From a virus: 64,000 nucleotides of DNA. Below, piece after piece: positions 9,182-61,812 of the stretch; position 1 is the stretch's first letter; the number at the start of each line of letters is the position of its first letter. The translations under genes and the position numbers were made by a program. The stretch is taken from IMG/VR virus record IMGVR_UViG_3300045988_110372, positions 17,924-81,923 of that record. One strand, written 5' to 3'. The notes under the pieces were generated by a model, which saw nothing but the letters and a program-made list of their open reading frames with translations, was not told the DNA's origin and ran no database searches.

Positions 9182-11845
9182 CTAACTCCAAAAACTATCG
9201 TCAAATACGTTTGCCTTATCCAATCCTAAATCGTTATCCTCTTCCAACGCCACTTCCGAAGCTATAAGCTCCTGACCGTATTCGTATTTCAACAGAGGAA
9301 GCATCCTCATTGCAATAGGGTCTAGCAAGTCCATAGACCTGTTCTTTCCCAACATCTGATTCATTTCCTTCTTGTTGAAAAGCGTCTTTTTACCACTGGG
9401 CAAACCTTTCCATCTCACGACAGAACACTCTTCTATAAATTCCGTCTTTATCGTAATGGGATTGCTCATTCTCTTGTGAGGATAAATAGCTTCCGCAATA
9501 GAATCCTCAAATGAAAGCAAACCTCTCTTTATAACCTCTACCAATCGTCCGTAGCACTCGTCCTTCATGTTGTAGTGCATACGCCAATACAACCCATTTG
9601 GTCTGTTGTATGATTTAAAACCTATCGCACCGTTGATATAGTCGTTTATATAAGCAGCCCTAATAGCATCGTAGATTATATGATTGTCAGGTATTCCGTG
9701 TCTTTCTGCCATCTGCATCAGCATCTCTGCGTTAAGTCGTGGCGTACTTGTACATAATATCTTATAGTCTATGATATGCAGACCGTTCCAAACAAGTATT
9801 ACCGTGTTATCGTCACCAGTGTCAGCCAAGTCTGCCGTTATCCATTTGTCGTTGTTCTTTCGTGGGTCGTTGTTGAAAACGCTTTCGGCAGTAGCGTATG
9901 GGATAGGTGCTTCTGCATCGTTTTTTAAAGATACATTCCAATTACCTTCAATAAGCTGTTGTGCCTGCCTTCCACCAACTGCTGCAACACTACCAGCGTA
10001 GTCCATATTGTTACCGATAGAAGCCTTGTTCTCTGACATTCTACCTAAATAGAATGTAAAGCTTTTTATAAGGTTCTTATATGTAAACCCACCACCTAAA
10101 GATTTTATCTTTCTATCAATATCGTCCCTGCATTTTCTGTAAACTTCTTCTTTTGAATCACCCCAAACAACATCGTCTACATTCTCTCCTTGAAGATAGA
10201 AGTATCTCACGACACCGTTTCTATCTTCCATTATTTGCCCATCCAATCCAACATACCAATCAATGAATTTTCTAACCCAGCAGTCTTTTTCGGGGTTTGT
10301 AGTTCCTCTGAATTTGCCCGACCATTTGGCTTTACCACGGTTACGTGATAGTAGATATTTGAACGTAGAAAACTCATACGAAGTCAATTCGTCCATATAT
10401 ATTAAGTCGTACTGGCTACCTTTCCAAGTTTCAGTTACCTTTCGTATATTTTCATCGTTAATCTGCCTGAAATCAACAAACGCCCCTGACGGAAACCTTA
10501 CACGTGGAGGGTCTGTTGATTTCACTTCAATGTGATTACCATAGGCAGATTTAAAATCGTCTGTCAAAGAACCACCACCTTTCAATTCCGAGAATGTTCT
10601 TCGTGTGAAACATGCACGGAAATTTGGGTCTAATGATGGCTCGGCAACAGAAAGGATTGCAGCAAAAGACTTTCCGCAGTTCCTTGTTATAACGTATCCA
10701 TCTGTTAAATATATATGCTCGTTACCCGAAACATTTATACATCTAACATTTTTTTTGCCGACAAGTTTATAATCCATAATGCTTAGCATTGTGCTACATT
10801 TTCTGTCTTTTTCAGTTATAGCCTTATTTTTTTTTCTATCTAAGCAAAACAAATCTTTATCATTCTTAGTCCACACTAACAATCCGTAAGATTTAGCACA
10901 GTTTACCTCTTTCCCATTTTGTATTCTTTTTGTTTTATCTGTAATGTGTATTGAACATCTTCCACCTATACTCCATATTAATTCTTGAATATCATTTGCC
11001 AAATTTTCACTTGTTGTCCTGTAAGAAACTCTGCTTTTCCTATTTGTGCTAGATTGGGAGCAGCAGCCATCTGTATCGAACAGCCCTCTTATAAGCTCCA
11101 TTCTGTCTTCTATACTTGAATACTTATATATGTTAGGTATAAATTTATCATAAGACAATTTGCCCCACAATCCAAGTTCCTTCAAATACTCAACAACTTC
11201 TTTATTTCTGATGCAATAATGCAGGCTATTCTTATTTTTACTTTCTTTAACTATATCATATCCTAACCCTTTTATTCTTTCAATAGTTTGATAATCCTTA
11301 GAATGGCAAGCAAGGTCAGCTCTATGTAACTTATTAGATAAACAACCATCGCCTATTAGACAACCTAGTAAATACGGATGTATTTTAAGATTATCTTTTT
11401 TGTAAAAAGATACAGGCTGAGTAAGAGGTATTCTCAATCTATTCACATGTCTTTTATCCCTATTCTTAGATTTATCAATATATTTTATAATATCTTCGGA
11501 AGAAATATCAATAATATTTCCATGCCTTTCTTTTACCATCCAACGGTGAGAAAGAGCACTCTGAACCTTCCTTCCATCTTGTAACGTAAACTCAACAACA
11601 TCTTGTAGTCCTTTGTCTATTACAAAATTAACCACTTGATTTCCACCCATTGGATTATGTATTATATCTCCTACCTTTATATCTCCCATTTTTCTAAATC
11701 CGTCAGGAGTTGATATTAAGGCATCCATTGGTTGAGGGTTGAGTACCCCTCCGCCTATAACCACGTCTATATTGCTGCGGACGAAATTTTCTTGAAATCC
11801 TTCCTGCGGTCTGATAATTCTTATTTCACTTTCTTCATTTGCCAT
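9182..11845 (-). CDS. terL: Terminase large subunit, interrupted by an intein in the Walker A loop
   Basis: The exteins read ...VVIGGGVLN / CGKSFAAILS..., which regenerates GxxxxGKS. Walker B-like LIYMDE is present, and a C-terminal nuclease-type region follows. 887 aa including a 353-aa insert. Confidence 0.9.
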   Translation of the reverse strand: MANEESEIRIIRPQEGFQENFVRSNIDVVIGGGVLNPQPMDALISTPDGFRKMGDIKVGDIIHNPMGGNQVVNFVIDKGLQDVVEFTLQDGRKVQSALSHRWMVKERHGNIIDISSEDIIKYIDKSKNRDKRHVNRLRIPLTQPVSFYKKDNLKIHPYLLGCLIGDGCLSNKLHRADLACHSKDYQTIERIKGLGYDIVKESKNKNSLHYCIRNKEVVEYLKELGLWGKLSYDKFIPNIYKYSSIEDRMELIRGLFDTDGCCSQSSTNRKSRVSYRTTSENLANDIQELIWSIGGRCSIHITDKTKRIQNGKEVNCAKSYGLLVWTKNDKDLFCLDRKKNKAITEKDRKCSTMLSIMDYKLVGKKNVRCINVSGNEHIYLTDGYVITRNCGKSFAAILSVAEPSLDPNFRACFTRRTFSELKGGGSLTDDFKSAYGNHIEVKSTDPPRVRFPSGAFVDFRQINDENIRKVTETWKGSQYDLIYMDELTSYEFSTFKYLLSRNRGKAKWSGKFRGTTNPEKDCWVRKFIDWYVGLDGQIMEDRNGVVRYFYLQGENVDDVVWGDSKEEVYRKCRDDIDRKIKSLGGGFTYKNLIKSFTFYLGRMSENKASIGNNMDYAGSVAAVGGRQAQQLIEGNWNVSLKNDAEAPIPYATAESVFNNDPRKNNDKWITADLADTGDDNTVILVWNGLHIIDYKILCTSTPRLNAEMLMQMAERHGIPDNHIIYDAIRAAYINDYINGAIGFKSYNRPNGLYWRMHYNMKDECYGRLVEVIKRGLLSFEDSIAEAIYPHKRMSNPITIKTEFIEECSVVRWKGLPSGKKTLFNKKEMNQMLGKNRSMDLLDPIAMRMLPLLKYEYGQELIASEVALEEDNDLGLDKANVFDDSFWS
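10679..11737 (-). mobile_element. Intein with LAGLIDADG homing endonuclease domain (about Pro37-Asn389 of TerL)
   Basis: Hint block A-like PQPMDALISTPDG. Block B SHRW. LAGLIDADG motifs YLLGCLIGDGC and LIRGLFDTDGC. Block F VRCINVSGNEHIYLTDG. Block G YVITRN followed by the +1 Cys. Confidence 0.8.
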
Positions 11846-33705: not shown

Positions 33706-34424
33706 TAGAAATCCTCTGAATTTAGTTCAACTTTTACGTTTTTATCCGCTATAATCGGTCTTATCCCAACTTCTTCAAATACCATCTTCTGAAATAACTT
33801 CTCGTCACTTTGTCCGTCAGATAAATGTACAAGCATCAAAGTTCTAAGTTCGGGATTTATGTTTCGCTTAATAGCTTCGATTGTTTGATTTATCTCCATG
33901 TGAAACTCGTTGTGAGAACGTATTTCCTGATTCCGGCATAGATTGTCTATCATTAAATCCTCGCTGTAATTCCCTTCGATAAGCAAATGATTCAGACCTT
34001 TTATCTTATAAGGAAAGCTGACCGCATCCGTGCAAAAGACTAAACTTCCGAACTCTTTATGAGTAATCAAAAAGGAATAATTCTCACAATTATGATGAAC
34101 AGGCAAAGCCATAACAACAAAAACACCAATCTTGTACTGAACTTTTGGCTTCAATACTTTTACTCCTTGATATTTGTCGGCTACTTCTTGGTTTGAGTAG
34201 ATAGGTATTTGCTTTTGAAGCATTTGTTTTATGGACTTTGAATGGTCTCCATGAAGATGCGTGACAAGGGCATAACATTGTGATACATTATGGTTTAAGC
34301 CCTCCATAATATCTTTGTATTTGCAGCCTAAATCAAGAAGCAGGCGTTCATTACCTGCTTCAAGAATATAAGTGTTTCCTTGTTGACTACCACTACCAAT
34401 TACCTTTAGTGTTGCCATAATCAA
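33705..34424 (-). CDS. Metallo-beta-lactamase-fold nuclease (candidate recombination exonuclease)
   Basis: HLHGDH motif. Lies adjacent to the RecT-like gene. Confidence 0.75.
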   Translation of the reverse strand: MIMATLKVIGSGSQQGNTYILEAGNERLLLDLGCKYKDIMEGLNHNVSQCYALVTHLHGDHSKSIKQMLQKQIPIYSNQEVADKYQGVKVLKPKVQYKIGVFVVMALPVHHNCENYSFLITHKEFGSLVFCTDAVSFPYKIKGLNHLLIEGNYSEDLMIDNLCRNQEIRSHNEFHMEINQTIEAIKRNINPELRTLMLVHLSDGQSDEKLFQKMVFEEVGIRPIIADKNVKVELNSEDF

Positions 34425-35266
34425 AATTCAGGTTCATTCTTCTTTTCTTCGGCTGGCTGAATTACCTCGCCCGTCTGAACGTCTACAACTTCACCTTCTT
34501 CTGTTTTGATTTCTTCGGCTTCTGCGTCAATTACCTGCTGTGTAAATTCAGGCTGTTTGTCACCTGCAAGCATCGTATCATCATCGTCATTAAAGGTAAT
34601 ACCTACCGCTTTTACATTTGCATTCACAAGTGATTTTGTACTTTTTTTGATGATAGAACGGAATATCATGTCGCGCTCGAACTCTTTTGCAACCGCACAA
34701 CCGTTAGATGATTTTTTCCAACTAGTAAGCCATTCCCTTTTAGTCATAATATAGACTTCTGTATCACCTTTATCGTCTGTAACGTAAGTATATGCAGCAA
34801 TAATAGGCTTATCAAGATTTTCAAGACTTGTTTCGTGCTTCTTGATAACAGTCTGACCGTTTTCTACGTTTACACCGATTTCAAATACATCATCTTCGTG
34901 AACGTACTGAACAATAGGTTTATAGTTTTTACTTGCTCTTTTGGCACGAGCAATACGACCATAAACAGATTCCATCGTAGTCATAGTATTTTGACGAGGG
35001 ATGAAGTAAATTTGGTTCTCTGAAAAGTCTAAGCCTTTGCAACAAGCGTCAATCAAACACTGAATAATACTTGCTTGTGATACTACTTCAAGCACTGGTT
35101 TACCGCCCACTTTCATGTCGTTAAGCATCAAACGGGCTTTCTTTAAGCTGTTAGCCGGGTTGAAGCCATCGGGCAATACCATACCCAAATCCATATACTG
35201 ATTAATCTTTGCTAATGCAACTTCTTCTACCAATGTAGATTTTGCTAATTCATTTTTGTTTGCCAT
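34421..35266 (-). CDS. RecT-like single-strand annealing protein
   Basis: The size, the acidic C-terminal tail, and the context (nuclease, SSB and resolvase nearby) fit. My motif recollection is approximate. Confidence 0.6.
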   Translation of the reverse strand: MANKNELAKSTLVEEVALAKINQYMDLGMVLPDGFNPANSLKKARLMLNDMKVGGKPVLEVVSQASIIQCLIDACCKGLDFSENQIYFIPRQNTMTTMESVYGRIARAKRASKNYKPIVQYVHEDDVFEIGVNVENGQTVIKKHETSLENLDKPIIAAYTYVTDDKGDTEVYIMTKREWLTSWKKSSNGCAVAKEFERDMIFRSIIKKSTKSLVNANVKAVGITFNDDDDTMLAGDKQPEFTQQVIDAEAEEIKTEEGEVVDVQTGEVIQPAEEKKNEPEF

Positions 35267-35278
35267 AATAATTAATGT

Positions 35279-36049
35279 TTATCGTTTGTATCTGAATATA
35301 TAGTCATTCACATTATTTACTTTACCTCTACAATTTAAGCCGATGGAGGTTGCGCATAAGTTTAACTTTCTTCCAGCGTCTGCTATTGATTCATAATCAC
35401 ATACATAATCACCATTTAAAAGAAAGCACGAAACAGGCTGTTTATTAAAATCTTGGTATTCTTCAAATTTGTCATTTTTGTTTGCTTCATTCCTCCAAAT
35501 AAATTTATTCGCTGATTTCGCTAACCCACACAAACAATTACTTATAGAGCTTCTATTTGTGTTAGTTGCTCGATAAGCCTCTAATACCGAGTTAAATCCC
35601 GCAATAAATTCACCGTTTAAAGAATATTGGTAAACTTTTGTTGAATTGCAATACTTCCTGCTTCCATATTTTAAATTATAAGAATACGTGCAATGCTCTA
35701 AATTTTCAGCTCTGTTGTCTGATTTTATTTCATTTTTATGATTTACGCATGGATGATTGTTAGGATTTGGTATAAATACGTCAGCGACACACTGATGTGA
35801 TGAAATTCTTATCTTTTCTCCTTTTAAATTAGAGATACGACAAGATAGATACCCCTGCCAATTCGGGAATTGTTTAATAATTCTTTCTCTGTGCTTTCGC
35901 TTAGTATTACCAAACTTTCTGATAGAAGCAAGAGCTTTTATCCTACCCATATTGCTTACCATATATAGGTTATCGCAATCAGGTATAAACCTCCATTCCT
36001 CATTAGGAAGGTTTTCTAAACTTAGATTTTTGTAAATTTCTGTTTCCAT
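35279..36049 (-). CDS. Free-standing HNH homing endonuclease (NUMOD4 / HNH_3 / IENR1)
   Basis: EEWRFIPDCDNLYMVSNMGRI, HQCVADVF, VNHKNEIKSDNRAENLE. Confidence 0.85.
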   Translation of the reverse strand: METEIYKNLSLENLPNEEWRFIPDCDNLYMVSNMGRIKALASIRKFGNTKRKHRERIIKQFPNWQGYLSCRISNLKGEKIRISSHQCVADVFIPNPNNHPCVNHKNEIKSDNRAENLEHCTYSYNLKYGSRKYCNSTKVYQYSLNGEFIAGFNSVLEAYRATNTNRSSISNCLCGLAKSANKFIWRNEANKNDKFEEYQDFNKQPVSCFLLNGDYVCDYESIADAGRKLNLCATSIGLNCRGKVNNVNDYIFRYKR

Positions 36050-42917: not shown

Positions 42918-44864
42918 TCAATCTTTTACTTCTACATTAAATTCACCACCATTGTTCCACATTTTGATAGTCTGATTTTCTATCAATGGGTAATTATCTT
43001 CATCTACCGTATGAGATTCGTCAATGAATATCGGCAGGTTAAGACCATAGAACTTCTGAAAACCTAACGACAAATCAAGTCCGCATCTAACTTTGCTTGC
43101 TGCATTTGTAACTTGTGCCGACACACCTTCTGAATCGAGGATTCTACAATCGGGTACAATATCTCCGCTTTTGTTTACCGAAGTCATTACAACAGAAATA
43201 TAGTCAAACATTCCGTTCACCTTATCAGAAACAAGCTGTGCTTTCTCTTGCTCGTACTTTATAGCCTTGTTTAGCATACCTTCAAGTCTTGCAAGTTCGA
43301 TGCTGCTCTCTCTAAGTTCGTTCTGTTTATGCTTGATAACCTCAATCTGCTTGTCGTATGTATCTTTTACACCGAGTTTCTTAGAAAGTTCCTCAACATC
43401 ATTCATAAGGTCTTTCTTCATGTTGATTAAAGCCGCATTATCCTGCGTTGGTACGACCGTCATATTTGCCTTCTTATTTGAGATTTTAGCCACTTTCTCC
43501 TTGCCTTCGATAGTTTCCTTATACGGAATAAAATTCTTTCTCAAATCGGCTAATCTGCTTTCAAGTTCAGTCTTGTCAAGCAAAGGCTTTTCGGTATATC
43601 CTTTTTCGATAACAGTCATTGCTTCGTCAATCTCTTTCTTAACCTCGGCAATTTTTTCATTGTTTGCTCTACCTTCTGCTACAATAGCATTGTGTTTGGC
43701 TTCTTTTCTTTCAAAGAACTGCTTCTTGGCTTCTTCAAGTTTATCTTCCGGCAAAATCTGTCCGCAATAGGCACATTTATCATCTGTGAATACCATTGCT
43801 TTTACTTTCTCATTCTGTTTTAGCAATGTGTTGCGATACTCGTTCAGCTTTTCAAGTTTAGATGTTGCCGATTTAAGCGTTTTCTCTGCGTTTTCGATAG
43901 ATTGCTTGGATAATTCATTTTCTTTCAAAATCTGCGCATTTCTAATATAAATTTCAGCCATTTCTGCCTTAATCTTGTTAGCTTCTTCAATCGGTTTCAG
44001 GTTGTACTTGCTTTCTGCTTCTGCCAACTCTCTTTCAAGTTCAGCAATCTCTTTCAACTCTGCATTTCTCTTGTCGATATACTGCTGAACGCTTTCGCTG
44101 CTTCCTGTAATCTGTGCGTCAATGTCGGCAATCTGTTTCTTCGTTTCTTCGATTTCTTTCTTAACATCATCTAACCCTTGAATGTCAGGTAAACTTGTCT
44201 GCAATGTCTGAATAGTGATAGGCAGACTTTCTACGCTTGACTTTACGGATTTTATTTTTGACTTGTAAGAGCTTTTGACCTCATCAATAGGATATTTCCG
44301 TAAGTCGTTCAGAATGTCGGTATAGTCGCCTTTCATTTCAGATTCATCAATATTGCCTACAAGTGATTCAAAGTGCTTGCGCATGTCTTTCCAATCAAGT
44401 GATTCGTAATGTCTGATATTCAGCATAAGTTTCAGCTTGTCGAAAGGCGCAAATGTTTCTTCGATAAATGACTTATAATCTCCTGCGCTTCTCTCAATTC
44501 CATCAATGTAAAACTTGTAATCATCAGTAGCTTTCTTTTCGTATTCCTCACGCCCTTTCTTTCTCGTCCAACCTTGCTTTGCAGTCTTTTTCAACGTATA
44601 TTCTACTCCGTCAATATCCAACACGGCTTCGGTAGATGCAAGTTTTGAGTTTTCATAAGTAAGCGGCAAAGTATCATCGAACAGTTTGTAGTTTATTCTG
44701 TCTTGTTCGTCTGAGCCAGTAAGCAACCAAAGCCAAGCGTTGAAGCAACTTGATTTTCCACTCTTGTTTTTCCCTTTGATTTCTGTATTGTGACCGAAGT
44801 TTATAACTTTGTTCTGTCCTCGCCAATCCTGCAAGGTGAGTTTTTTAAGAGTTATTGTTTTCAT
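42918..44864 (-). CDS. Rad50/SbcC-like SMC-family ATPase
   Basis: N-terminal Walker A GKNKSGKSS. Long central coiled coil with a CAYCGQ (CxxC hook-like) motif. C-terminal Walker B-like LPIFIDES. Confidence 0.8.
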   Translation of the reverse strand: MKTITLKKLTLQDWRGQNKVINFGHNTEIKGKNKSGKSSCFNAWLWLLTGSDEQDRINYKLFDDTLPLTYENSKLASTEAVLDIDGVEYTLKKTAKQGWTRKKGREEYEKKATDDYKFYIDGIERSAGDYKSFIEETFAPFDKLKLMLNIRHYESLDWKDMRKHFESLVGNIDESEMKGDYTDILNDLRKYPIDEVKSSYKSKIKSVKSSVESLPITIQTLQTSLPDIQGLDDVKKEIEETKKQIADIDAQITGSSESVQQYIDKRNAELKEIAELERELAEAESKYNLKPIEEANKIKAEMAEIYIRNAQILKENELSKQSIENAEKTLKSATSKLEKLNEYRNTLLKQNEKVKAMVFTDDKCAYCGQILPEDKLEEAKKQFFERKEAKHNAIVAEGRANNEKIAEVKKEIDEAMTVIEKGYTEKPLLDKTELESRLADLRKNFIPYKETIEGKEKVAKISNKKANMTVVPTQDNAALINMKKDLMNDVEELSKKLGVKDTYDKQIEVIKHKQNELRESSIELARLEGMLNKAIKYEQEKAQLVSDKVNGMFDYISVVMTSVNKSGDIVPDCRILDSEGVSAQVTNAASKVRCGLDLSLGFQKFYGLNLPIFIDESHTVDEDNYPLIENQTIKMWNNGGEFNVEVKD

Positions 44865-44866
44865 AA

Positions 44867-45832
44867 TTATTTCATTTCACTGATTAATGCATTTCCACAA
44901 GTAATTCTATCACTATCTTCTTCTTTTGAAGGAACAAATACGATGACATCCCATCCTTCTTCTAGCAGCGGCTGTTCGAATTTGCGGTACACATCATAAT
45001 CAGCATATCCAGTTACTTCAAAACCATTTTCAATAGCTGAATTTGTTTCATGAATTGGGGTAATTTTTACAATAAACTTATTCTTGTCAAATAACTCAGA
45101 GAGTTTCTTTGCATCAAGAATAGTCTGTGCAGTTACAGGAAAATTCAAAGTATATTTTCTACCTTTGGGCATTGGTAAATCTTCAGCTAATTCTGATATT
45201 TCAGTTAAAGATAAACTTTTTCTATCAAATAACTGATTTCTTTGTTCGTCACCAGTTGAATTGATAGAGAACTGAAGTCCTGCTTCACCATTGTAAAAAT
45301 CATTTTTTATTTCGCACCAAGTAAGAATATACTGTTTCAATTTCTTATTTGCTTTTGGTAGCATAGTAGATACTACTGGATGAACAGTCTTTGCTTTTAA
45401 TCCACAAGTCTTTACAAGTTCTTTCAGCATCATAGAAAAAGCCAGCACATTTTCATTCCAAGTTGGTTCTCCCATTCTTGCAAAGTGAACATTAAATCGT
45501 TCAGTTTCTCTTACATCTTCATTTTTGATAATCATTTTAATTTGATAAGCAAGTTCATTTACTGAAACATTACCAAAGAAGCCAAATTTAGGAACATCAC
45601 AGAATTTACATTTCATCGGGCAACCTTTCTGTGTAGAGATAGTAGCAACCCATTTATTACGCAAATCTACTTCTGTGTTAGCTACTCCGTTGATTTCTTT
45701 TGTCAGACCGAGAAAGTCAGCCTTGATGTTATTTTCTTTTCCGTAATCACCTACTGTAAGAAATTCAAGTTTCTTTTCGGTATCTACATAAATCTTTCCT
45801 GTGTGAGTTTTAATTGTTTTCATATTATACAT
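44867..45832 (-). CDS. Radical SAM enzyme, RlmN/Cfr-like core
   Basis: CPMKCKFC (Cys71/75/78). ARMGEP, LQFSINSTGDEQRNQL, KITPIHE and C-terminal DRITCGNAL align by eye with my recollection of RlmN. Confidence 0.8.
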   Translation of the reverse strand: MYNMKTIKTHTGKIYVDTEKKLEFLTVGDYGKENNIKADFLGLTKEINGVANTEVDLRNKWVATISTQKGCPMKCKFCDVPKFGFFGNVSVNELAYQIKMIIKNEDVRETERFNVHFARMGEPTWNENVLAFSMMLKELVKTCGLKAKTVHPVVSTMLPKANKKLKQYILTWCEIKNDFYNGEAGLQFSINSTGDEQRNQLFDRKSLSLTEISELAEDLPMPKGRKYTLNFPVTAQTILDAKKLSELFDKNKFIVKITPIHETNSAIENGFEVTGYADYDVYRKFEQPLLEEGWDVIVFVPSKEEDSDRITCGNALISEMK

Positions 45833-49112: not shown

Positions 49113-49883
49113 TCAAAATAGCTTTAATTCGTTAGACATATATTTATCAGCTATACTTTCGTGAACGAATAGTTTCTCGGTTGGCTTGTATGTATTCTTT
49201 AAGCTCATTGAATTAGTAACTTGTTTTTGCCAAACACATACAAAATCTTCGGGTGCTTGATACTCCGATATAATAACATCATTGCCCTCTCTCGTCATTC
49301 GTCTACACCAACTATAAAAGGTGTCGTGATTAAAATCTTTTGAAGTCAAATACTGTTTAGTGCCTTTATATGGGATATCACAATATATAACTGATTTTTT
49401 AGGCATTTCGTAGCTATCATAACTGCCACACCAAAACTCAACACCTTGCAGCTTATCTACTTGTGAAAGGGTGTTTTTTATTTGATTACCTATAAAATCA
49501 ACACCATTTGAATTATGACTTGAATACCCACCGTCATAAAACCTTCCGTTAAAACTACCCATAAATCCAATCCAACCAATCATAGCTTCTTCCAATGTAT
49601 CACCCAATCCGTTAAATCTTTTTTGATTGAATTTGGCACGATATTCAGAATAAAGCTCTTTGCTAATTGTTTTAGGGAAATTATGACCTCCACAAAGAAA
49701 TCTCCACATTGCTATAAGATAGTTATTTTTATCAGAAGCAAGTCGTTTAGAGTGATTTATGTTACACATCATATTCATCCCCCCGCTGAATGGTTCTACA
49801 TAATATCTATTTTTAGTTAAGTGTTTTGTGAGAATAGGTTCAATATCTTTTGCTATTCTTGCTTTACTACCCATATACTTCAT
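49113..49883 (-). CDS. dam: DNA adenine N6-methyltransferase (D12 class, Dam-like)
   Basis: N-terminal MKYMGSKARIAKDI, EPFSGG, and the catalytic DIPY (DPPY variant). Confidence 0.85.
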   Translation of the reverse strand: MKYMGSKARIAKDIEPILTKHLTKNRYYVEPFSGGMNMMCNINHSKRLASDKNNYLIAMWRFLCGGHNFPKTISKELYSEYRAKFNQKRFNGLGDTLEEAMIGWIGFMGSFNGRFYDGGYSSHNSNGVDFIGNQIKNTLSQVDKLQGVEFWCGSYDSYEMPKKSVIYCDIPYKGTKQYLTSKDFNHDTFYSWCRRMTREGNDVIISEYQAPEDFVCVWQKQVTNSMSLKNTYKPTEKLFVHESIADKYMSNELKLF

Positions 49884-53285: not shown

Positions 53286-54035
53286 TTAAAGTTCATAAAT
53301 ATTTCTTAAACTATTATACATAGCACGTGCTCTCTTTTTATCAAAAGGTAGTCCGCTTGAAGTAACTTTGCCACGTTTATTCAGTTCGTCTGCAATAGGT
53401 TGGAAGTTCGTATTTGCGGTTATCTTTCCGTGAATCATTTGATAGTCCGTTATAAACTCCCAAAAAGCCTTATTTGCCGGATTCATACGAGCTTTTTCTC
53501 GTCTAATCTGTGCTGATGCTTGGGAAGCTTCACTAATTGCCTTAGTTCGGTCTGTATTTCCTTTTTTGCTCCCCCAAAGGTTATTTGTACCGCCTATCTC
53601 TTTATGGTTTGCTTTTCTTGCATCCAAACCCGCTTTAGTTCGTTGCCTGATGTTATTCAATTCAATTTCAGCAGCAAGCGACAAGGCAAACAATAACGCT
53701 TTCCCTCCGATAGATTTATTCTCTATAATTGTACCGTCTTTAGCCTGAACGATAGTTATTTCTCTTTCGCTTGCCTCTGTAATAATCTGAAATAGGTCAG
53801 ACATATTTCTCCCCAAACGTGATAATTCACTGATATAAATTGTACTACCTTTGTCACATTGCTTTAGTAGTTCATTCAGCTTTCTTTCTGTATGCTTTAC
53901 AGACCCGCTAACCTTTTCAACAACTTGCAATAGTTCGGCTGTTTCATTTATACGGCTTAAATAGTCCGTGATACATTGCATTTGCTGGGTGAAGTCTTGT
54001 GCTTCTGAACTTACACGAAGATATAGATATTTCAT
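53286..54035 (-). CDS. Small serine recombinase (resolvase/invertase family)
   Basis: YLYLRVSSEAQD (catalytic Ser), ISELSRLGRN, and RTKAGL. At 249 aa it has no large-serine-integrase C-terminal domains. Confidence 0.85.
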   Translation of the reverse strand: MKYLYLRVSSEAQDFTQQMQCITDYLSRINETAELLQVVEKVSGSVKHTERKLNELLKQCDKGSTIYISELSRLGRNMSDLFQIITEASEREITIVQAKDGTIIENKSIGGKALLFALSLAAEIELNNIRQRTKAGLDARKANHKEIGGTNNLWGSKKGNTDRTKAISEASQASAQIRREKARMNPANKAFWEFITDYQMIHGKITANTNFQPIADELNKRGKVTSSGLPFDKKRARAMYNSLRNIYEL

Positions 54036-60708: not shown

Positions 60709-61812
60709 ATGAATATCAGAGTTAATAAGTCGGAATTTGTAAAAGGTCTTTTAGTAGGAGGCTCTTTTGCTGGCAGAACAAAGTTTTTGCCTATTTTGGA
60801 TTGTGTAAAGATTAAGGTTAAGAACGGAAGCATGGTAATTGTTTCTTCTGACAATGAAAATGCTATCAGCAAGCGTATATTCGGTGTAGAATCGGACGGT
60901 GAGGTTTCATTCTGTGCAGGTTATAAAAGCCTTCTGTCTTACGTGAAGCTTATAAAGAGTGAATTTATAGACTTGGTGGTTGACGATGAGGTCAAGAATT
61001 TGGAGGTCAAGCATGATAAGGGAAGTGTAAGTTTGCCTCTTTCTGATGCTTCTGAATTTCCTTCGATGCAGCCTGATGAAAATGCGGTATATATCAGCAT
61101 GGATAGTGCTTTGCTGAACAACTGGATTGTAGACGGTCAGGTATTTGTTGGCAATGATGAGTTACGTCCAGTAATGGGGGCTATCTATTTCTATTGCGAC
61201 AAGGGAGAATTGGGAGTATGTTCTTCTGACGGTCACTACATGTTTACGGATTTTGTAAGTTCGGAACTTGAAGATTTCAACTTTATGCTTAACAAGGGAG
61301 CATTTAAAGCCGTATGTGACGTATGTAAGGACTCTGATATTGTCAAGGTGAGCATTGGAAGTAACAATATCAAGTTTTCTTCGGACGATTGTTCTGTTTT
61401 GGTGAGAACCATTGAATCAAAATATCCAAATTTCAAGTCCGTTTTCCCGAAAAACAATCCTATAAACGCAAAATTGTTGAAAAAAGACTTTGTTGATGCA
61501 ATTAACAGATGCAAACTTGGTGCAAGTCAGACTACTTGTCTTGTCAAACTGAATATTTCAGGCATGAACTTGGAAGTCAGTGCGCAGGATTTGGATTTCA
61601 ACATCAAATCTGTTGAAAATATGCTTGTTGAGGCTAACGGAAGCATTGTTATCGGCTTCCATGCAGAGAAATTGCTTGCAGTATTGGGTTGTATAGGCAC
61701 GGAATACGTAAATATTGAGCTTTCCGAATCTTCAAGGGCGGGATTGTTCAAGGAAGATGATGAAAACAGTCATAAACTGTTGCTTCTGATGCCTATGCTT
61801 CTGAACGATTAA
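60709..61812 (+). CDS. dnaN: DNA polymerase III beta-type sliding clamp
   Basis: 367 aa. The N-terminus (LPILDCVKIKVKNGSMVIVSSDNENAIS) and the C-terminal LLLMPMLL match the DnaN pattern as I recall it. Confidence 0.8.
   Translation: MNIRVNKSEFVKGLLVGGSFAGRTKFLPILDCVKIKVKNGSMVIVSSDNENAISKRIFGVESDGEVSFCAGYKSLLSYVKLIKSEFIDLVVDDEVKNLEVKHDKGSVSLPLSDASEFPSMQPDENAVYISMDSALLNNWIVDGQVFVGNDELRPVMGAIYFYCDKGELGVCSSDGHYMFTDFVSSELEDFNFMLNKGAFKAVCDVCKDSDIVKVSIGSNNIKFSSDDCSVLVRTIESKYPNFKSVFPKNNPINAKLLKKDFVDAINRCKLGASQTTCLVKLNISGMNLEVSAQDLDFNIKSVENMLVEANGSIVIGFHAEKLLAVLGCIGTEYVNIELSESSRAGLFKEDDENSHKLLLLMPMLLND

Follow-up and report, generated by a model that had tools for sequence, protein, structure and literature searches.

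What does an enzyme of the RlmN/Cfr type do once it has lost one of its two catalytic cysteines and its N-terminal domain? The question is raised by a 64,000-nucleotide (nt) stretch of gut phage DNA (positions 17,924 to 81,923 of IMG/VR record IMGVR_UViG_3300045988_110372; hereafter the window), which encodes on its minus strand a 321-amino-acid (aa) protein of the radical S-adenosylmethionine (SAM) type. RlmN methylates C2 of A2503 in 23S rRNA and of A37 in tRNA, while Cfr methylates C8 of A2503 and thereby confers antibiotic resistance. Their two-cysteine ping-pong mechanism is a textbook case, and to our knowledge these two RNA methyltransferases are the only class A radical SAM methyl synthases. 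The phage protein belongs to a very large and mobile clade that has kept the methyl-carrier cysteine, exchanged the resolving cysteine for a near-invariant threonine and dropped the N-terminal domain. Our preferred reading, plausible but short of an even chance, is that it is a stand-alone one-carbon-transfer enzyme acting on a small N-heterocycle linked to the salvage of nicotinamide adenine dinucleotide (NAD).

A probable stand-alone catalytic core of the RlmN/Cfr type

There is little doubt that the protein is a member of the radical SAM superfamily, as judged from its motif, its fold and relatives that score above the Pfam cut-off; its own match to Pfam Radical_SAM (PF04055) reaches 24.4 bits against a gathering score of 29.5 (E 3.7e-5). 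Sequence, profile and fold comparisons all place it nearest to RlmN/Cfr among known families. In a single-sequence scan RlmN, and not another radical SAM subfamily, is the first family (E 2.8e-11, residues 58-156), at 43 bits against a cut-off of 290 bits (TIGR00048), in keeping with the view of an earlier note, made from the letters of the window, that this is not an ordinary RlmN. The Cfr models of NCBIfam follow at E 1e-7 and 28-32 bits, against cut-offs of 468-550. RlmN chains also rank first in a phmmer search of the PDB. A profile built from a family alignment of 16 sequences (A1) matches RlmN structures at E 2.6e-18 to 5.6e-16 from residue ~42 to 323, and Cfr (PDB 9p0p) at E 1.6e-15, and hhalign aligns the protein with residues 111-369 of Klebsiella RlmN at 98.3% probability. 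When the AlphaFold model was submitted to Foldseek, the eight top PDB matches were all RlmN (E 1e-10, template modelling score 0.64), followed by Cfr. The match is not due to chance: the protein matches PHROG 24834 (function not assigned) at E 4.6e-109, with residues 5-318 aligned to profile positions 5-323 of 336; 7240 of 8000 candidates scored are homologues at E<=1e-3; and the AlphaFold model has a predicted local distance difference test score (pLDDT) of 90.

The protein shares with RlmN the radical SAM core fold, the CX3CX2C cluster in the same register, the GMGEP, SLH..D..R and beta-6 motifs, and a methyl-carrier cysteine in a C-terminal xCG(Q/N) loop. Much of this had been seen by eye in the earlier note and is reproduced by programs. 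HMMER aligns STQKGCPMKCKFC with SSQVGCALECKFC, with T64 opposite C118, and HMMER or hhalign aligns RMGEP with GMGEP, QFSINSTGDEQR with AISLHAPNDxIR and TCGN with ACGQ, the last of these pairs closing the A1 profile alignment. Translation places cysteines at positions 71, 75, 78, 143, 173 and 312 and threonine at 64; the first three form the CX3CX2C motif, as the note had stated, and align with the cluster cysteines of RlmN. They are kept in 55-58 of 59 representatives. Conservation within A1 is complete at G121 and P123 of RMGEP and at least 90% at R119, M120 and E122; in the QFSINSTGDEQR motif, T193 and R198 are invariant and Q187 and S189 at least 90% conserved. By eye only, an invariant E23 corresponds to RlmN E105.

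Two features set the phage protein apart from both RlmN and Cfr. It has no equivalent of the resolving cysteine, Cys118 in RlmN, and the accessory (RNA-binding) N-terminal domain, some 60 residues long, is missing: profile and hhalign alignments begin only at RlmN residue ~102-111, which confirms the absence noticed earlier. Ahead of strand beta-1 the alignment and the model leave room for only ~60 residues, comprising a short beta-hairpin and a clade-specific insertion. This insertion of ~30 residues is without a counterpart in RlmN according to hhalign and forms a low-confidence loop in the AlphaFold model (pLDDT 69-73 at residues 31-60). The protein has a pI of 6.5 and no RNA-binding domain. 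From its sequence, it is probably a stand-alone catalytic core of the RlmN/Cfr type, that is, a class A radical SAM methyl synthase. Cfr belongs to the same branch of the superfamily, and nothing suggests a role in resistance for the phage protein.

A predicted carrier cysteine without its resolver

The RlmN reaction opens with methylation of Cys355 by SAM. A 5'-deoxyadenosyl radical then removes a hydrogen from mCys355, which leaves a methylene radical to attack C2; the adduct is deprotonated and resolved by Cys118 (PMC12871812). The PDB titles of C118A cross-linked RlmN-tRNA structures agree with Cys355 as carrier and Cys118 as resolver. The earlier note had taken C118 for the methyl carrier and the equivalent of C312 for the resolver; these roles need to be exchanged (PMC12871812). 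The residue of the phage protein that aligns with the carrier (RlmN C355, Cfr C338) is C312, its predicted methyl carrier, and the one opposite the resolver is T64 (in phmmer alignments to the C118A crystal forms, T64 stands opposite alanine). The note had further concluded that the enzyme, as it stands, cannot follow the known ping-pong chemistry. The resolver is indeed gone; since the carrier is kept, the first half of the reaction could still run.

The loss of the resolver is a property of the clade. No realignment brings a cysteine to the C118 position, and among 152 close homologues (at least 44% identity) a threonine lies seven residues ahead of the cluster (position -7) in 151 and CGN is found in 149. 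The survey of this position called for in the earlier note was extended to 44 full-length representatives at 50% identity, none of which has a cysteine at -7 and 34 of which have the C-terminal cysteine.

More distant phage proteins are built differently. Salmonella phage Arash gp133 and Stenotrophomonas phage BUCTxx99 WPH68542 are likewise truncated at the N-terminus, 25-27% identical, and share the core motifs and a C-terminal CGQ; unlike the phage protein studied here, they have a cysteine at the C118 position, and their genes belong to a tRNA array or have an RNA ligase gene in the vicinity. They look like complete methyltransferases. A third phage type (Pectobacterium Arno18, Kehishuvirus tikkala, Vibrio D479) has glycine at -7 and no C-terminal loop. 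A gene of the SPFH/band-7 (prohibitin) family lies near distant homologues in Kehishuvirus tikkala and BUCTxx99 (L004:4407-5624; L005:5878-6837 and 9991-10836). In BUCTxx99 and in Xanthomonas phage JGB6 the homologue bears the label 'prohibitin family protein', apparently through an annotation error.

Family extent

The family comprises 891 clusters at 50% identity and is found in at least 576 IMG/VR viral contigs, one of which encodes a 100% identical protein and is probably the contig from which the window comes. Its nearest relative in an isolate is from Bacteroides phage Versailles (54.5% protein identity); the window has no nucleotide match to known phages, and a literature search found no published description of a phage RlmN-like clade. 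Because two defining features of RlmN and Cfr are missing, the label '23S rRNA (adenine2503-C2)-methyltransferase', which one source does give to a homologue, is unsuitable, and the clade is better described as a class A radical SAM methyl synthase variant with a possible new function.

A large number of nearly identical relatives (86-87% identity) have been called as proteins of 431-437 aa with an additional N-terminal part of ~115 aa that holds no known domain, and others as 386-aa proteins with a different N-terminal extension. These could be real fusions or in-frame open reading frames (ORFs) joined by gene callers.

Association with NAD-salvage operons

Unlike RlmN, the clade is encountered in phage accessory regions, in NAD operons and in fusions with a transporter-like domain. 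A set of 79 genome loci was fetched and their neighbouring genes clustered, with NAD-related identities confirmed by Pfam and NCBIfam. Most of these loci look phage-like and are variable in their neighbours. In ten of the 79, NAD genes form tight same-strand clusters around the radical SAM gene (rSAM). Six metagenome-assembled genomes (MAGs) of gut Alphaproteobacteria share the order PncB-PncA-rSAM-NadE-DUF5662-NrtR, two Bacilli-like MAGs have PncA-PncB-(NadE or Nudix)-rSAM-(NadE)-NadD-PncC-NrtR-NadK, a Peregrinibacteria contig has NadE-NMNAT-rSAM and a Woesearchaeota contig rSAM-NMNAT-NrtR. Flanking genes such as AspRS identify these contigs as chromosomal. In addition, a viral contig (IMGVR_UViG_3300006145_000007, L134:794-4766) carries NAMPT, NadE, a 98-aa ORF and rSAM as overlapping or abutting genes, with capsid and Dam genes downstream; this group is a possible, so far undescribed, phage NAD cluster.

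The radical SAM proteins of the alphaproteobacterial and Bacilli-like operons are 70-76% identical, compared with 33% for PncB and 26% for NadE, which argues that a mobile rSAM gene entered native NAD operons repeatedly. The gene, perhaps together with NrtR, has inserted at different operon positions in at least four cellular lineages and one phage. Such repeated entry is hard to explain without a functional link. Published NrtR regulon tables do not mention a radical SAM enzyme, and a literature search for such a gene in NrtR or NAD operons gave no result.

Several features of these operons deserve mention in their own right. The NrtR-like Nudix/winged-helix regulators of the Alphaproteobacteria and Bacilli-like MAGs (L019, L024, L026, L039, L078) are 50-54% identical, against 26-34% for PncB and NadE of these operons, and the regulator may travel together with the rSAM gene. 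The DUF5662 protein encoded between NadE and NrtR in the alphaproteobacterial operons has ~165 aa (L023:4864-5361, cluster c9). Genes for class I SAM-dependent methyltransferases occur in or beside the NAD/rSAM clusters of a Bacilli-like MAG (L039:10895-12847) and the Woesearchaeota MAG (L078:6760-7386).

Phages are known to restore NAD through the NAD+ reconstitution pathways NARP1-3, whose defining enzyme pairs are Adps+Namat, Nampt+Nmnat and PnuC+NadR. The common element is the use of NAD-restoring phage genes as counter-defence, to which the viral contig described above adds NAMPT and NadE beside rSAM. Unlike that cluster, the pathways as summarised in the NARP3 abstract include no radical SAM enzyme, and the word 'radical' does not appear in the NARP3 paper.

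Domain fusions

In at least 58 clusters from Bacilli and Clostridia MAGs the radical SAM domain, 42-45% identical to the phage protein, is the middle part of a triple fusion, preceded by a QueT-like multi-pass membrane domain and followed by a PNP_UDP_1 domain. The membrane domain scores 22-40 bits with Pfam QueT, above the cut-off of 33.7 bits in two of four proteins scanned. The genes are monocistronic and lie in ordinary chromosomal surroundings. The nucleosidase domain reaches 223.9 bits against the MtnN equivalog cut-off of 169. MtnN removes S-adenosylhomocysteine (SAH) and 5'-deoxyadenosine. We therefore rejected the idea that PNP_UDP_1 is a nucleosidase specific for the substrate of the radical SAM domain; its score makes it, most simply, a nucleosidase for methylthioadenosine, SAH and 5'-deoxyadenosine that clears by-products.

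Fusion partners in other relatives are a TrxR/FNR-like flavoprotein or an isochorismatase-like hydrolase, and in one phage group an FMN-reductase-like gene, recognised by eye from its sequence, lies directly downstream. The Pyr_redox_2 domain was considered as a source of the missing resolving thiol and rejected, because no CxxC motif could be seen by eye; the domain thus has the appearance of an FNR-type electron donor. Overall, the combination of a transporter-like fusion with modules for electron supply and by-product removal suggests a high-turnover enzyme that acts on an imported small molecule rather than on RNA.

A possible role in one-carbon transfer and NAD salvage

Taken together, the NAD operons, the transporter fusion and the catalytic support modules favour a small-molecule substrate over RNA, and we tentatively favour a one-carbon transfer to an N-heterocycle of NAD salvage. 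In the proposed reaction C312 would accept or carry a one-carbon unit; the 5'-deoxyadenosyl radical formed by reductive cleavage of SAM would activate this S-methyl group, and the methylene radical would react with an sp2 carbon of an N-heteroaromatic ring. Release would then require a base or thiol other than Cys118, for which the conserved Asp79 or an external thiol are candidates. The target would probably not be A2503 of rRNA in the manner of RlmN; candidates are a niacin vitamer and, within an NAD-related metabolite, the adenine or the pyridine ring. The phage gene might work autonomously, as an auxiliary or counter-defence function through which the pyridine-nucleotide pool is supported or altered.

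A number of observations weigh against this assignment. The window contains no NAD gene, and there is none near the rSAM gene in 79 of 80 viral loci; a tblastn search of the window with PncB, PncA, NadE, NadD, PncC and NrtR found no NAD-salvage gene, Adps, PnuC and NadR not having been searched for explicitly. Members of the same clade stand beside Thg1-like, RNA ligase and RlaP genes in other phages, and the distant relatives with two cysteines lie in tRNA arrays, both of which fit an RNA target. About one in four of the 50%-identity representatives has no counterpart of C312. Whether the isochorismatase-like fusion domain is a nicotinamidase is doubtful: the metal-binding motif of nicotinamidases could not be recognised in it by eye, nor could the catalytic cysteine in one copy. 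The correspondence of E23 with RlmN E105 was drawn by eye alone, and the hhalign alignment does not reach E23. Finally, NADase-based defences already release nicotinamide, so that it is not obvious what a phage would gain from an extra precursor-forming step. Where the earlier note had suggested rRNA or tRNA as a target, the comparative evidence points instead to a small molecule, with the RNA-repair neighbours keeping RNA in contention.

More far-reaching, and unlikely as matters stand, is the proposal that phages and minimal-genome microbes have in common a new NAD-linked radical SAM activity. Possibly Cys312 serves to remove a one-carbon unit from a pyridinium or adenine ring, or to transfer one there, and so to convert an unusable niacin vitamer into nicotinate or nicotinamide. 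Alternatively, the enzyme could C-methylate an NAD-related metabolite. Such an activity would be a fourth, single-gene phage route to restoring or protecting the NAD pool against NAD-depleting immunity.

If the NAD-linked small-molecule function is correct, the chemistry of class A methyl synthases extends beyond RNA, the salvage of vitamin B3 in gut microbes gains a step that has gone unrecognised, and phages possess a new kind of NAD-related auxiliary gene.

Alternative functions

The alternative that survives best is a minimal RNA methyltransferase (a mini-RlmN/Cfr) that C-methylates an adenine in tRNA or rRNA of host or phage, with another residue or thiol in place of Cys118, for instance in protecting anticodon loops during tRNA-targeting defence. 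RlmN and Cfr are the closest proteins by every measure, the methyl-carrier cysteine is kept, and the company of the gene can be read in the same sense: Thg1-like genes (Thg1 identities 31-98%) lie just upstream in 14 of 80 viral loci and in three genome loci, RNA ligase, rSAM and RlaP genes occur on one viral contig, and distant phage homologues with both cysteines are found in tRNA arrays or near RNA ligase. In another class of methylases a carboxylate can stand in for Cys118 as the base (PMC12871812). We nevertheless consider an RNA target somewhat unlikely, given that the N-terminal domain is absent, the pI is neutral to acidic and the resolving cysteine is missing throughout the clade, a change that in RlmN traps a covalent RNA adduct according to PDB titles. 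An RNA substrate is also difficult to square with the membrane transporter-like fusion and with the presence of the gene in NAD operons of candidate phyla radiation (CPR) and DPANN organisms, and there are no tRNA genes in the window. Should RNA prove to be the substrate, the clade would show how an RlmN adduct is resolved without Cys118.

Distinctly unlikely is a lyase or demethylase without methyl transfer, in which the 5'-deoxyadenosyl radical would act on the substrate directly and C312 would donate or accept a hydrogen atom. Such an enzyme would release nicotinamide or nicotinate for the PncA/PncB route from a vitamer that is otherwise unusable, for example an N-methylpyridinium compound. 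Loss of the resolving cysteine is what one expects if no adduct needs to be resolved. Genes in salvage operons usually supply an intermediate of the pathway, and rSAM is placed between PncA/PncB and NadE/NadD; uptake of a precursor is suggested by the transporter-like fusion, and herbivore and human guts are the origin of many of the source MAGs. This proposal is, however, pure inference; no such reaction is known for the RlmN-type fold, and the TCGN loop and the SAM motifs resemble their counterparts in a functional methyl synthase. What a phage would gain is not obvious, and the regions upstream of the fusion genes hold neither a riboswitch nor any other hint of a ligand.

Modification of phage DNA, for example by C-methylated adenine within a replication, recombination and modification module serving restriction evasion, is highly improbable. 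It would fit the SbcC-like, RecT, HNH and DNA methyltransferase genes of the window, the rank of DNA methyltransferases as the commonest neighbour family in the genome loci (10 loci, identified by eye from sequence) and the Dam-family gene ~3.6 kb downstream of rSAM in L134. Against this, chromosomal NAD operons encode the same protein at 70-76% identity, and it also occurs joined to a membrane domain; it has no DNA-binding domain, and it has no universal neighbour.

The QueT-like fusion domain also raised the idea of a queuine lyase salvaging preQ1, akin to QueL, a radical SAM enzyme encoded in the same operon as the QrtT transporter gene, but even with the Pfam QueT match of the N-terminal membrane domain in its favour this is practically untenable: solved QueL (PDB 6P78) appears only at rank 39 of the fold search (E 1.2e-2) and not at all in sequence searches, no TGT, QueA or QueT gene occurs in 166 loci, and no preQ1 riboswitch precedes the fusion genes. 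QueL may offer a functional analogy: its substrate is a salvaged, vitamin-like N-heterocyclic base, and it shares its operon with QrtT, the S-component of an energy-coupling factor transporter; it nonetheless belongs to a different and smaller radical SAM family (230 aa) without significant sequence or fold relation to the phage clade, which has no queuosine genes nearby.

Genomic context in the window and in related viruses

The features of the window are collected in Table 1. By ORF listing and translation, the radical SAM ORF, which opens with ATG, is a real gene. Its stop codon precedes the ATG of the SbcC/Rad50-like gene by 2 nt, and a 68-aa ORF upstream ends 19 nt before its start, so that it is a member of a tight minus-strand operon. 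Nearby genes encode, apart from the SbcC-like ATPase, a helix-turn-helix protein, an endonuclease VII/HNH-like protein, a GNAT protein and a DNA methyltransferase; farther away lie genes for RecT, an HNH/NUMOD endonuclease, a metallo-beta-lactamase-fold protein, a serine recombinase and a beta clamp. No tRNA genes were found in the window. A temperate lifestyle, or one with an invertible segment, would be consistent with the serine recombinase.

Table 1. Features of the window, with positions counted from its first letter.
Feature	Position	Strand	Basis
Gene for the 321-aa RlmN/Cfr-like radical SAM protein, PHROG 24834	44867..45832	-	ORF listing, PHROG, RlmN profile and fold matches
CX3CX2C motif (C71, C75, C78; CPMKCKFC), predicted to bind [4Fe-4S]	45599..45622	-	Translation; aligned with RlmN cluster cysteines
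Thr64, at the position of RlmN Cys118, 7 residues ahead of the first cluster cysteine	45641..45643	-	HMMER alignment
C-terminal loop DRITCGNAL with Cys312, equivalent of RlmN Cys355	44885..44911	-	Profile and hhalign alignments
RMGEP motif, equivalent of the SAM-binding GMGEP motif of RlmN	45464..45478	-	Alignments
QFSINSTGDEQR motif, equivalent of RlmN AISLHAPNDxIR	45239..45274	-	Profile and hhalign alignments
Clade-specific insertion of ~30 residues (DYGKENNIKADFLG...) between N-terminal beta-hairpin and strand beta-1	45659..45748	-	Alignment A1
Downstream SbcC/Rad50-like ATPase gene, apparently translationally coupled (2-nt gap)	42918..44864	-	PHROG 77, E 1.1e-40
RecT recombinase	34421-35266	-	
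HNH/NUMOD homing-type endonuclease	35279-36049	-	
DNA methyltransferase	49113-49883	-	
Serine recombinase (Resolvase)	53286-54035	-	
DNA polymerase III beta clamp	60709-61812	+	

The 80 related viral loci fall into about ten different neighbourhoods without a universal partner. The position next to a Rad50-like ATPase in an operon, to which the earlier note had drawn attention, is real in the window phage; a conserved partnership is not borne out, as the adjacency occurs in none of the 80 viral loci and not in phage Versailles. A functional pair of radical SAM protein and Rad50/SbcC-like ATPase was rejected for this reason. Two further candidates were discarded: a component of a defence system, since PADLOC models gave no match at E up to 1, and a small conserved partner ORF or peptide substrate, since none is common to the phage groups.

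On one viral contig (IMGVR_UViG_7000000295_000084, L124:4724-9861) the gene is part of an apparent RNA-repair cassette together with genes for a Thg1-like protein, an RNA ligase (PF09414) and an RlaP nucleotidyltransferase (PF10127). Several loci also encode, near the RlmN-like gene, another radical SAM-like protein, unrelated to the first, of ~300 aa, with the motif CCDMGCKFC and a weak match to Pfam Radical_SAM (20 bits). It is encoded adjacent to that gene in one of them (L067:7051-7944), is also present in L072 and L059, and lies at a distance of ~4.5-5.5 kb in L134 (9244-10167) and L143 (11939-12832).

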